From: a virus
Lineage: Duplodnaviria > Caudoviricetes
Reading direction: 5' to 3' (one strand)
Virus record (IMG/VR): IMGVR_UViG_3300032030_002018
DNA length: 64,000 nt
Shown here: one piece after another, positions 45,501 through 48,089 of the stretch
Numbering within the stretch: the stretch's first letter is position 1
Layout: each line of letters starts with the position of its first letter
Position numbers and translations under genes: made by a program
The notes under the pieces: generated by a model
Seen by the model: the letters and a program-made list of their open reading frames with translations, nothing else
The model's database searches: none
What the model was told of the DNA's origin: nothing

Positions 45501-46143
45501 TACGTGTGCCGGGACTCGAACCCGGAACTTGCAGTTTCATACCACTCTATGTTACCATAGCCAAACACTCTAAAATTCTTGCATTATTATCCCTATAGTT
45601 TTATGCTGCTCTTAGAGGGATTGCCTAAAAACTTGTGTTTGTTGTGGTCTGGGCTGTCTCTGTACCATATTGAAATTCTTGCAAGATATGAGTGTAGTTT
45701 CTATAACTACCAAGAGCAGTCCCTGTACTGCTGCTTTCAACGTCTTAAGGTTTTAACTTTATACTCATAAATTTCAACTTAGGTATCTCCCGTTCAGTCT
45801 CTACACGATTATAGCTTATTCTCTCCCCTTATTACCATCACTTCTGTAGAGAGTTTACCCACCCGATATAAGCCATTTTCGCTCGGTGTTGTCCTTACAC
45901 ATTATTGTTTAGTGTCCTGTTTATTCAATAAGTATTTCTCAGGGGAGGGTTTCCACCTCCAATTATGCAAACCATAAAGGCATTTTACTGCATACGTCAA
46001 TCGTTTCACTTTCGCCACCTGGGGTCCATCATACTTATCTAAAGGATTTCCACCGAATTTAGGAGATTCTACATAGGGATTTCTCGCCTATGCATCCAAT
46101 TTTAATAGAAGACTGCTATTCTATCCAGTTGAATTACACACGT
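45501..46143 (-). tRNA. tRNA-Arg(TCT) split by a group I intron
   Basis: Exons join to GCAGT-CTTCT|AA-ACTGC; acceptor ACGTGTG/CACACGT. Confidence 0.88.
45538..46106 (-). ncRNA. Group I intron (IC3-like), 569 nt, inserted after position 36
   Basis: 5' exon ends in U, intron ends in G; P AAATTCGGTGGAA, Q CAACACCGAGCGAA, R GTGTAGAGACTG, S GAGACAGCCC. Confidence 0.85.
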
Positions 46144-46157
46144 CTGTGTTTTTTTTG

Positions 46158-46228
46158 ATGCCCCAGAACGAGTCGGACGTTCCTAACAAGAGCCAAAATC
46201 TTGTGCATTACCGCTATGCTATAGGGCA
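46158..46228 (-). tRNA. tRNA-Gln(TTG)
   Basis: Cloverleaf; T-loop TCCGACT. Confidence 0.88.
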
Positions 46229-46233
46229 GTATC

Positions 46234-46347
46234 AGGTATCTATAAAACAACTGGAGTTGCAGGATTCGAACCTACGTATCATCATTATTAGTGACGCATC
46301 TTAACCTCTTGATTAAACTTCACGTTTTAGATTGCTGTAAGATACCT
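46234..46347 (-). ncRNA. ACAGCAA-motif stem RNA 3 enclosing a tRNA-like fold (46251-46322, anticodon AAT)
   Basis: AGGTATCT-TACAGCAAT...cloverleaf...AGATACCT. Confidence 0.65.
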
Positions 46348-46351
46348 TTTG

Positions 46352-46424
46352 TAGCCGGCACGGGATTCGAACCCGTATGGGCAGAATGAAAATCTGCAAT
46401 CCTAACCTGTTAGATGAACCGGCC
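46352..46424 (-). tRNA. tRNA-Glu(TTC)
   Basis: Cloverleaf. Confidence 0.92.
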
Positions 46425-46430
46425 ATCAAG

Positions 46431-46503
46431 AGCGGAAGACGAGATTTGAACTCGCAACTTTCAGCTTGGAAGGCTGACGCTCTGCCAATTGAGTTACTTC
46501 CGC
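46431..46503 (-). tRNA. tRNA-Gly(TCC)
   Basis: Cloverleaf. Confidence 0.92.
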
Positions 46504-46506
46504 ATA

Positions 46507-46652
46507 CTGTACGCTAAATTCTGAACAAACTTGTCTGTTCATTATTAACTTCTTGTTTCATCCTACCACTACTTTTTAGTACCTCATAGCTGAGTGTGTC
46601 ATCCATAGGAGGGCAGTCCGCAAGCGTAAATTCGGGTGTACAGCACCCTACG
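46507..46652 (-). ncRNA. Stand-alone IS607-type omegaRNA scaffold without tnpB
   Basis: Homologous to 38649-38790; own promoter at 46688-46719. Confidence 0.75.
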
Positions 46653-46687
46653 TTTAATAGATAAATACTCATTTTTTATTTACAATG

Positions 46688-46719
46688 CAAATGTACACTA
46701 TTTATTTGTAAAAAACAAA
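46688..46719 (-). promoter_or_regulatory. Bacteroidota-type promoter
   Basis: TTTG-N20-TACATTTG. Confidence 0.8.
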
Positions 46720-46736
46720 TTTTCAAACTTGAAATA

Positions 46737-46946
46737 TTATGATTTTAACGTTTTTTGCATTTCCTCATCCTCTAAATCATCAAGTTCAGACATTAAATCA
46801 TATAACTTCTCATTTTCAGCCTCATATATCTTTAAACTTTCATTACGATGATATGGATGGTCTATTCCTAATAAAGAATTCCTTACCTTAATACATTGGT
46901 CAGCAATCTCAATTTTCTTCTTTTCAAGTTCTGTTAATCTCTCCAT
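46737..46946 (-). CDS. Small coiled-coil protein
   Basis: Start moved to MERLTE, downstream of tRNA-His. Confidence 0.6.
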   Translation of the reverse strand: MERLTELEKKKIEIADQCIKVRNSLLGIDHPYHRNESLKIYEAENEKLYDLMSELDDLEDEEMQKTLKS

Positions 46947-46963
46947 CTTCCAAATCATTTGAG

Positions 46964-47037
46964 GGAGTCTGATAGGATTCGAACCTATGTAAACAAGTGC
47001 CACAAACTTGCACCTAAACCTCTCGGCCACAAACTCC
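46964..47037 (-). tRNA. tRNA-His(GTG)
   Basis: G-1:C73, cloverleaf. Confidence 0.92.
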
Positions 47038-47050
47038 ATATATATTTATG

Positions 47051-47123
47051 TGCGCTCTGACAGACTCGGACTGTCAACTCCCAGATTAAAGGTCTGGTAC
47101 TCTGCCAATTGAGTTAAGAACGC
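47051..47123 (-). tRNA. tRNA-Lys(TTT), C33
   Basis: Loop CCTTTAA. Confidence 0.85.
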
Positions 47124-47130
47124 ATATACG

Positions 47131-47204
47131 CGCCCTGGGATGGGTTCGAACCACCGACATTTTGATTAACAGTCAAACGCTCTAACCAACTGAGCTACCA
47201 GGGC
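47131..47204 (-). tRNA. tRNA-Asn(GTT)
   Basis: Cloverleaf. Confidence 0.92.
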
Positions 47205-47279
47205 AGTTGTTGCAACTTAATTTGTTAAACATCAGAGGTTGCAACTTTGAATGTCCAAAACGCAAGGAAACATTCATTG

Positions 47280-47367
47280 TTGGCTTGGAAGGAATTGAAC
47301 CTTCACAGACATTTCTGTCTCTACATCCTAATTGTAGTGCGTCTCAACCATTTGCGCCACAATACCA
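47280..47367 (-). tRNA. tRNA-Leu(TAG), bulged acceptor stem
   Basis: Loop ATTAGGA, long V-arm. Confidence 0.8.
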
Positions 47368-47379
47368 ACATTATCTTTG

Positions 47380-47466
47380 CGGAGAGAGGGGGATTCGAAC
47401 CCCCGGTACGGTTACCCGTACGGCAGTTTAGCAAACTGCTGGTTTCAGCCACTCACCCATCTCTCC
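47380..47466 (-). tRNA. tRNA-Ser(GCT)
   Basis: Cloverleaf with V-arm, G73. Confidence 0.93.
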
Positions 47467-47476
47467 TGATTGTTTC

Positions 47477-48089
47477 TGGCGGAAGCACTCCGATTCGAAC
47501 GGAGACACCGCTTTGACACGATTACTGGCGGTTTTCCTTACCACTCTATGTTACCATAGCATATTTAACTTGGGTTGGAATTTCACCAACTTGGACAAGG
47601 ACCATTTATCCCTCGCAGCCCCATACATTACTGTCTTACATCGTTAAATATTTGTGGTCTGGACCATCTCTTTACCATATTGAAATTCTTGCAAGAATAT
47701 TGGTGATTCGAACACCTACCTAGTACGATTGCTAGATACCTCATTGCCATTTGAGGAATATAATTTCAACTTAGGTATCTCCCGTTTGGCCTCTACACGA
47801 TTATAAGGCTGTTACCTTCTACATCTATCACCACATAGTATGCTTGTAACATTTTATTGGTTCACCTCATTTTCGTTCGGTATAGTCCTTACACATTATT
47901 GGTTAGTGTGCCTTACGTAAGTTTATCTATGCGTATAGGGATTCAAACCCATCGCCGTTTATAGCATCTGCTTACTTCTCTTGCTAAAAAGGATTTCCAC
48001 CGAATTTAGGAGATTCTACTATGGGATTTCTCGCCATAGCACTCAAATTATATTAAGACCGCTGCCTTACCAATTAGGCTTATGCTTCC
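47477..48089 (-). tRNA. tRNA-Ser(TGA) split by a group I intron; encodes CCA
   Basis: Exons join to GCGGT-CTT|GAAA-ACCGC; acceptor GGAAGCA/TGCTTCC-G-CCA. Confidence 0.88.
47537..48054 (-). ncRNA. Group I intron (IC3-like), 518 nt, inserted after U34
   Basis: Core nearly identical to 45538-46106; P7 GGCCA/TGGTC. Confidence 0.85.

Follow-up and report, generated by a model that had tools for sequence, protein, structure and literature searches.

Exchangeable T-loop cassettes, some apparently derived from tRNA genes, in putative group I introns of large phages

Why would the introns of phage tRNA genes carry, at their helix tips, hairpins that resemble parts of a tRNA? The question is raised by a 64,000-nucleotide stretch (hereafter, the window) of the IMG/VR virus record IMGVR_UViG_3300032030_002018, a genome of 334,687 bp (estimated completeness about 96%) that belongs to a gut or rumen phage of the class Caudoviricetes. 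The minus-strand tRNA array at window positions 44000-48800 contains 15 tRNAs according to ARAGORN and 16 according to Rfam, and two genes of the array escape calling, each being split by about 0.5 kb. The sequences that split them, intron 1 (45538..46106, 569 nt) and intron 2 (47537..48054, 518 nt), are predicted to be IC3-like group I introns of tRNA genes and candidates for self-splicing; a homologous copy, intron 3, splits a tRNA(CAU) gene outside the window (G000:C1:246748-247234, or L002 1081-1567). All the features of the three introns discussed below are on the minus strand. An earlier sequence-only reading proposed that the excised introns are stable scaffolds that display swappable tRNA mimics (decoys), or else that T-loop modules regulate splicing. 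In the interpretation that we favor, and to which we give about even chances, the inserts (hereafter, cassettes) are self-folding, exchangeable and partly tRNA-derived peripheral domains under structural selection, with the T loops kept for tertiary compaction.

T-loop cassettes at the helix tips

The P8 cassette of intron 2 (47696..47761) is a 66-nt mini-cloverleaf that consists of a D-like hairpin, a 6-bp hairpin with an 8-nt loop and a T arm, enclosed by a closing stem: AAUAUU / CCUCA-AAUGGCAA-UGAGG / AUCUAG-CAAUCGUA-CUAGGU / GGUG-UUCGAAU-CACC / AAUAUU. Thus, all the elements that had been read from the sequence are in place, and the insert is located exactly at the tip of P8 (UUGAAAUU/AAUUUCAA), with the acceptor-like stem continuous with P8. 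The 5' strand of P8, UUGAAAUU (47762..47769), pairs with 47680-47687 and is flanked by the halves of the 11-nt receptor (CCUAAG and UAUGG). In the RNAfold prediction, P8 and all three hairpins are present (z = -2.1 in the P8 context). ARAGORN calls a cloverleaf in this insert at 85% of its default threshold but not at the default, and the Rfam tRNA model (RF00005) has no match to it at E<=1. The T arm is of the tRNA type (G53-C61, UUCRANN), and the D-like loop AAUGGCAA contains GG; in place of a 7-nt anticodon loop with U33, however, there is the 8-nt loop CAAUCGUA on a 6-bp stem, and there are no free acceptor ends, so that the insert is tRNA-shaped and yet not a tRNA by standard criteria. 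In a local alignment against 658 tRNAs, the insert scores 42, compared with 30.3±2.6 for shuffled sequences (maximum 37), and the match runs in order from the D loop to the T arm, with tRNA-Met. As judged by this similarity, the mini-cloverleaf is probably a reduced cassette derived from tRNA-Met.

The corresponding site in intron 1 is occupied by a different insert (45687..45769), in which the closing stem UAUGAGU/ACUCAUA and two hairpins fold as the sequence-only reading described; in the homologous cassette of the related locus L110, one pair of the closing stem shows a compensatory change, from A-U to G-C. The P5 cassette of intron 1 contains the T-arm-like hairpin GGAGG-UGGAAAC-CCUCC (45944..45960), with the closing strand CCUG directly after it and an ARAGORN cloverleaf call at the 85% threshold. 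Neither of these two cassettes shows similarity to tRNAs (scores of 32 for P8 and 34 for P5, against about 31-32 for shuffles). The other hairpins noted in intron 2 are present as well: a T-loop-like hairpin, GGG-UUUGAAU-CCC, in the P5 cassette (47938..47950), which in the homologous cassettes of L088, L153 and L012 shows one loop difference (position 6, in L012), and the T-arm-like hairpin GUUGG-UGAAAUU-CCAAC in the P9 cassette (47574..47590), which is kept in L140, where the closing stem of the cassette has a compensatory change. The T-loop motif (U1, R4, A5 and U or G at position 2) fits all five hairpins that had been named. The P9 cassettes of introns 2 and 3 show borderline sequence similarity to tRNAs. 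Intron 3 also has a perfect T arm, GAGAG-UUCGAAU-CUCUC, beside a GG-loop hairpin in P9, and the hairpin UUGG-UGAAAGU-CCAA in P6.

Relatives of these introns were gathered from viral contigs, metagenomes and metagenome-assembled genomes with two conserved-core patterns and were parsed by core anchors that tolerate insertions and deletions. This yielded 126 complete introns, 113 of them distinct; two that exceed 1000 nt were set aside and 111 were analyzed, so that the family comprises at least 111 distinct introns. The peripheral parts of the 111 introns amount to 427 distinct segments (36.6 kb), which were searched for T-arm-like hairpins, defined as having a stem of 4 bp or more that is closed by a G-C pair and the loop U-N-N-R-A-N-N. 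There are 39 such hairpins in the sense orientation, compared with 2 in the antisense orientation and 3.3±1.8 (maximum 7) in 50 dinucleotide shuffles; the density, 1.07 per kb, is about 5 times that in the flanking phage DNA with the tRNAs masked (0.20 per kb). The three introns of this phage contain two, one and two of these hairpins. Relaxed ARAGORN searches of the introns give a similar picture, with 6 sense, 0 antisense and 0-1 shuffled cloverleaves at the 90% threshold, and 18 sense, 0 antisense and 1-4 (about 3) shuffled ones at the 85% threshold, where 4 of the 18 calls come from one mis-parsed locus (L136+2541) that includes real tRNAs, leaving 14. T arms adjoin the 3' strand of the enclosing stem in 56% of cases, against 38% for other hairpins. 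A catalogue of inserts across homologous introns had been suggested as one check on the tRNA-like reading; it shows enrichment of T-arm-like hairpins and T loops that are nearly constant between homologues.

By sequence comparison, some of the cassettes are clearly of tRNA-gene origin, with the anticodon arm cut short. One such P8 cassette, common to L043 and L112 (84% identity), aligns lengthwise with genuine tRNA-Asp genes with a score of 60, compared with 31±3 for shuffles, and its anticodon arm is reduced to CUCC-AGAA/GUGGA-GGAG, that is, a 4-bp stem with a loop of 4-5 nt. Such ancestry could mean that the cassettes are neutral passengers, fragments of neighboring tRNA genes that were caught in insertion-tolerant loops and persist simply because they fold by themselves and do no harm. 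The optional and hypervariable character of the cassettes agrees with this explanation, as does the clear tRNA ancestry of some of them, and the sense-only orientation could follow from the co-oriented arrangement of the tRNA arrays.

The pattern of substitution in the cassettes speaks against passengers. In four cassette families, the T stems vary by compensating pairs while the loops stay constant: CCCG/CGGG, ACCG/CGGU and UCUG/CAGA in the first; GCAAG/CUUGC and GUGAG/CUCAC in the second; GUAGG/CCUAC and GUGGG/CCCAC in the third; and AUAGG/CCUAU and AUGGG/CCCAU in the fourth. At cassette identities of 74-88%, the stems show compensatory changes and the T loops are unaltered; furthermore, T-loop sequences that are not of the tRNA form (UGGAAAU, UGAAAUU) are maintained, and the 12-fold excess of T-arm-like hairpins over shuffles includes hairpins without detectable similarity to tRNA. 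Between homologous cassettes, differences occur in 2 of 54 comparisons for loop positions 1, 4 and 5, in 11 of 72 for the other loop positions, in 39 of 168 for the stems, and in 128 of 1278 for the rest of the cassette. The conservation of the T loops amid stem change is suggestive of structural selection, and we consider it unlikely that the cassettes are neutral passengers.

The cassettes also appear to move. The four helix tips are hypervariable (the 126 introns show 108-110 distinct sequences at each of P5, P6, P8 and P9), and the closest relative of each cassette is found in a different contig for each cassette, whereas the other cassettes of those introns differ. For intron 2, the relatives of the P5 cassette are in L088, L153 and L012, that of the P9 cassette in L140, and that of the P6 cassette in L221; for intron 1, the P6 cassette has relatives in L011 and L141, the P8 cassette in L110, and the P9 cassette in L034, L037 and L178; the P8 cassette of intron 3 recurs in L057 and others. 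A cassette with a UGGAAAU loop is located in P9 of L016, L159 and L047 but in P8 of L107. RNA contigs from relatives have other sequences in place of the P8 inserts of the window, exactly at 47695/47762 and 45687/45765. The cassettes are thus mosaic and portable both between introns and between helix positions, which bears out the proposal that the inserts are swappable.

Combining these observations, the favored interpretation holds that a conserved ribozyme core tolerates variable extensions at the tips of four helices, P5, P6, P8 and P9. The cassettes are predicted to fold on their own, with the closing stem bringing both ends together, and a substantial share of them comes from tRNA material, either as whole cloverleaves with crippled anticodon arms or as single T-arm hairpins. 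Recombination between conserved flanking sequences would account for their exchange. T loops would be kept because they organize each cassette into a compact tertiary structure, or make contact with the intron, in the way that they act in RNase P, rRNA and riboswitches, and the cassettes would therefore not trap the ribozyme; they may also make the excised RNA long-lived.

Several observations weigh against this interpretation. A T-arm-like hairpin is present in only 36 of the 111 introns, one or two in each and mostly in P9, so that the family does not require one and any benefit would be optional. The closing stem of the intron 2 mini-cloverleaf, five A-U pairs, is marginal and is absent from the minimum-energy fold computed by RNAfold. 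No homologue of the mini-cloverleaf is found in 222 loci, and two further viral scans gave chance matches in coding DNA or nothing; because the element is a singleton, its fold is without support from covariation. The comparison of homologous cassettes covers few pairs, which are not independent of one another, and the lower rate of change at the key T-loop positions (2/54, against 10% elsewhere in the cassette) does not by itself reach significance. A partner covarying with T-loop positions 2-3 was sought and none was found; the only site of the UUYGAAU family that covaries with T-loop position 3 was rejected as a partner since it gives U.G and C/A combinations rather than a pairing pattern. 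Finally, a search with the Rfam model RF00028 (Intron_gpI) at E<=1 gives no match in the window, nor in the shortest members of the family.

Intron RNA and action in trans

The RNA evidence comes from a sheep gut metatranscriptome, of which only the contigs that exactly match the window were used for depth. Contigs within the introns have depths of 276-3191, that is, 10-130 times that of the flanking contig, a 1406-nt sequence (depth 23.9) that covers the intervening tRNA genes and the 5' splice junction of intron 1. One contig, 45663-45794, spans the whole P8 cassette of intron 1 at a depth of 1690, and two more, 47670-47735 and 47706-47906, run across the two borders of the mini-cloverleaf. 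Intron RNA thus appears to accumulate, although the contigs, while showing accumulation and continuity across the cassette, cannot show the ends of the molecules or splicing; among the joints listed for the RNA contigs, there is no exon-exon joint. Chimeric joints between introns 1 and 2 (e.g., 45813 to 47869) stem from the shared core sequence or from relatives. Other contigs join the 3' end of an intron (about 45540), through 9-23 other letters, to the 5' region of an intron (48046 or 46094), as expected of circular intron RNA of relatives or of tandem copies.

Accumulation of this kind is one reason to consider that the cassettes act in trans, as mimics of the top half of tRNA, such that abundant excised introns present look-alikes of the acceptor stem, T arm and elbow to a factor that recognizes tRNA. 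The candidates, which could be sponged or recruited as chaperones, include a host defense nuclease that targets tRNA, RNase P or Z, and the T-arm enzymes TrmA and TruB. Besides the 10- to 130-fold excess of intron RNA over the flanks in one metatranscriptome, two features are in line with mimicry: in the cassettes that derive from tRNA, compensatory changes preserve the acceptor, D and T parts while the anticodon arm is discarded, and 17 of the 39 T loops have the tRNA form UUC[A/G]A. The remaining loops, however, start with UGG, UGA, UGC, UUU or UUA, and the many UGG, UGA and UGC loops are unable to mimic T-psi-C. Two thirds of the introns are without such modules. Most known tRNA nucleases target the free 3' end or the anticodon loop, and the modules have neither. 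The variation of loop positions 2-3 is better explained by a generic structural T-loop motif than by specific tRNA mimicry. The cassettes are not decoding tRNAs, and the overall pattern looks more like structural building blocks than tRNA decoys; mimicry in trans is, in our view, unlikely. The idea that the inserts are tRNA mimics thus holds in part: T-loop and tRNA-like elements are enriched in the sense orientation only, but the P8 cassette of intron 1 is not tRNA-like, the loops vary at positions 2-3, and two thirds of the family do without T arms.

The cassettes could, alternatively, be processing signals, which RNase P and RNase Z would cut, as they do t-elements and mascRNA, and which would thereby break the intron or free a small RNA. 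In L043 and L112, the tRNA-like core indeed has an unpaired, A-rich leader and trailer inside the outer stem, but in the introns of the window the closing stem continues straight from P8, with no leader. Processing is further disfavored because high-depth contigs bridge the borders of the mini-cloverleaf and the whole P8 cassette of intron 1; we regard this role as highly unlikely.

The introns, their core and the P8 palindrome

Given that RF00028 misses the family, the identification of the introns rests on exon restoration and on covariation. Intron 1 is inserted after nt 36 of tRNA-Arg(UCU), between the 5' exon at 46107..46143 and the 3' exon at 45501..45537, and its last base, the omega G, is at 45538. 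Intron 2 lies between U34 and G35 of tRNA-Ser(UGA); the 5' exon is at 48055..48089 and the 3' exon, with the long variable arm, G73 and an encoded CCA, at 47477..47536, with the omega G at 47537. The joint 48055|47536 restores a canonical tRNA-Ser(UGA), with the 7-nt loop CUUGAAA, G73 and CCA, and the joint 46107|45537 restores tRNA-Arg(UCU), both recognized by ARAGORN at the default threshold on the joined exons; removal of intron 3 restores tRNA(CAU). The alternative host gene for intron 2, tRNA-Leu(UAA), was dropped: that assignment calls for an anticodon loop of 6 nt, whereas a tRNA-Ser(UGA) with G73 conforms to the canonical form. The base before each intron is U, and the last intron base is G. 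Introns 1 and 2 are homologues that agree in 75% of alignment columns and share long blocks of identical sequence. For a P1 with a U.G wobble at the 5' splice site, short candidate pairings can be traced by eye: CUU|AA may pair with UUUGAG in intron 2, and UCU|A with UGGA in intron 1. In both introns and in the family, L2 is GAAA and the P8 flanks CCUAAG...UAUGG form an 11-nt receptor; an invariant hairpin, CUAUG-GUAA-CAUAG, is located just before the 3' end of the intron.

The helices assigned as P2, P3, P4, P5, P7, P8, P9 and P9a covary among the 111 distinct introns, including those of the P3/P7 pseudoknot (for example, AU:49/UA:46 in P2, GC:50/AU:49 and UA:88/CG:12 in P7, and UA:71/AU:34 in P4). 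Most core positions are paired in 94-100% of the introns, with lower values at the helix ends (67 of 111 for the first P4 pair). The sources are mostly contigs of 50-413 kb from ruminant, deer, horse and human gut samples, and several contigs that carry a 'bacterial' label in metagenome-assembled genomes are identical with phage contigs of the set (L216 with L021, each 410,106 bp); the bins with related contigs are mostly labeled Clostridia. A search with intron 1 in the distant mode of blastn against GenBank phages returned no match. So far, the family is confined to uncultured large gut and rumen phages and is missed by standard models.

RF00028 does match some shorter introns (about 220 nt) of this genome and of related loci: G000:C1:151626-151851 (plus strand; L009), L021:2032-2260 and L025:2266-2485, with 42-47 bits, just below the gathering score; the intron in L021 likewise interrupts a tRNA gene. 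In L042, L047, L069 and L079, J3/8 contains an additional conserved block (about 57 nt) that starts with UGGGGGAAAUACAUUGAAUACCC and lies between the 3' strand of P3, GGAGAUA, and CCUAAG; it forms a fifth cassette site. L045, L054 and L044 have the same 3'-terminal P9 hairpin with a different core and a frame for an HNH-type endonuclease (CPNCH motif, as read in the DNA).

Beside the P8 cassette is a further conserved element, a palindromic bulge of 8-9 nt in the 3' strand of P8, which is CUUGCAAG in intron 2 (47688..47695; a 12-nt palindrome together with its flanks) and UCUUGCAAG in intron 1 (45678..45686). The palindrome at this place is perfect over 8 nt or more (8-12 nt) in 106 of the 111 introns, compared with 52 of 1626 control windows, and comes in at least seven variants (CUUGCAAG, CUUCGAAG, CUAGCUAG, CUCGCGAG, CUUGCGCAAG, CCUGCAGG and GUGUACAC), with one contig having two introns that bear different palindromes. 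The computed energies of the self-duplexes are -9 to -15 kcal/mol. Pairing of the bulge with UGCAAGA or UGUAAGA in P9 was considered and dropped, given that 13 of the 15 introns with the rarer variants lack a second copy elsewhere in the intron. The simplest reading of these hints is that the palindrome is a candidate element of RNA-RNA dimerization, through which two RNA copies would pair; the rival reading is a DNA-level site for a dimeric protein. Excised introns paired in this way might be abundant, long-lived RNAs and multivalent scaffolds, whose mimics of the tRNA top half titrate or recruit a tRNA-recognizing factor during infection. This extended version of the scaffold proposal we consider quite unlikely.

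Within the array, the motif UUUG...UACAUUUGCAAUG is repeated upstream of blocks of tRNA genes (minus strand, about 45420-45450, 46670-46700 and 48215-48245); it resembles the Bacteroidota -33/-7 promoter consensus, TTTG / TAnnTTTG. Given the Clostridia label of most bins with related contigs, the host may belong to either the Bacteroidota or the Clostridia. Two Rfam hits on the plus strand, 'Plastid-psbl-rps4' (47380-47431) and 'Plastid-ycf2' (47050-47123), are artefacts, the antisense strands of tRNA-Ser and tRNA-Lys, respectively.

Relation to known intron and tRNA-like systems

Together, the GAAA loop L2, the P8 receptor of 11 nt and a GNRA loop in the region of P9 presumably represent the IC3 layout, as in Azoarcus and Anabaena. 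With the bacterial IC3 introns of tRNA genes, the family also shares insertion between nt 34 and 35 ('CUU/a...g/') and after nt 36, the U before the 5' splice site, the omega G and the P3-P7-P8 core. The IC3 introns in anticodon loops of bacterial tRNAs have been catalogued (cyanobacterial tRNA-Leu(UAA), Azoarcus tRNA-Ile(CAU) and Agrobacterium tRNA-Arg), and the types of insertion site match those found here (Williams 2020, bioRxiv 10.1101/2020.01.27.920355). The phage introns differ from them in being 2-3 times longer (435-600+ nt), with four hypervariable cassette sites and a palindromic bulge in P8, in residing in the tRNA arrays of large phages, and in being invisible to RF00028. Published phage examples include short group I introns that interrupt protein genes of jumbo gut phages; a search of the available literature turned up no group I intron with a cassette of the T-loop or tRNA-derived kind. 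The features that appear to be new are the family itself, with more than 100 members, its portable peripheral domains, their repeated building from tRNA parts and T loops, and the self-complementary palindrome in P8, which offers a candidate for a naturally dimerizing group I intron.

The consensus of T loops is U-(U/G)-N-R-A for the first five positions of the 7-nt loop, with position 3 free, and the motif occurs in RNase P, rRNA, the T-box, and the FMN, cobalamin and TPP riboswitches (bioRxiv 10.1101/2022.12.26.521914). The cassettes have the same loop, which is conserved while the stems covary; they differ from the known T-loop RNAs in that no receptor or intercalating partner was found for their loops and in that they are sited in exchangeable cassettes of group I introns. 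RNAs that are tRNA-like without decoding are also known, namely, the tRNA-like structures of plant viruses, the tRNA-like domain of tmRNA, and mascRNA. Like these RNAs, the cassettes keep the cloverleaf or the top half of the elbow and have an abnormal anticodon loop or none, but they are embedded in a helix tip and have no free ends. Should the cassettes act in trans, phage introns would join the phage tRNAs in the conflict over the host tRNA pool. The favored interpretation would make them a natural case of modular RNA evolution, in which pieces of tRNA are reused as structural bricks.

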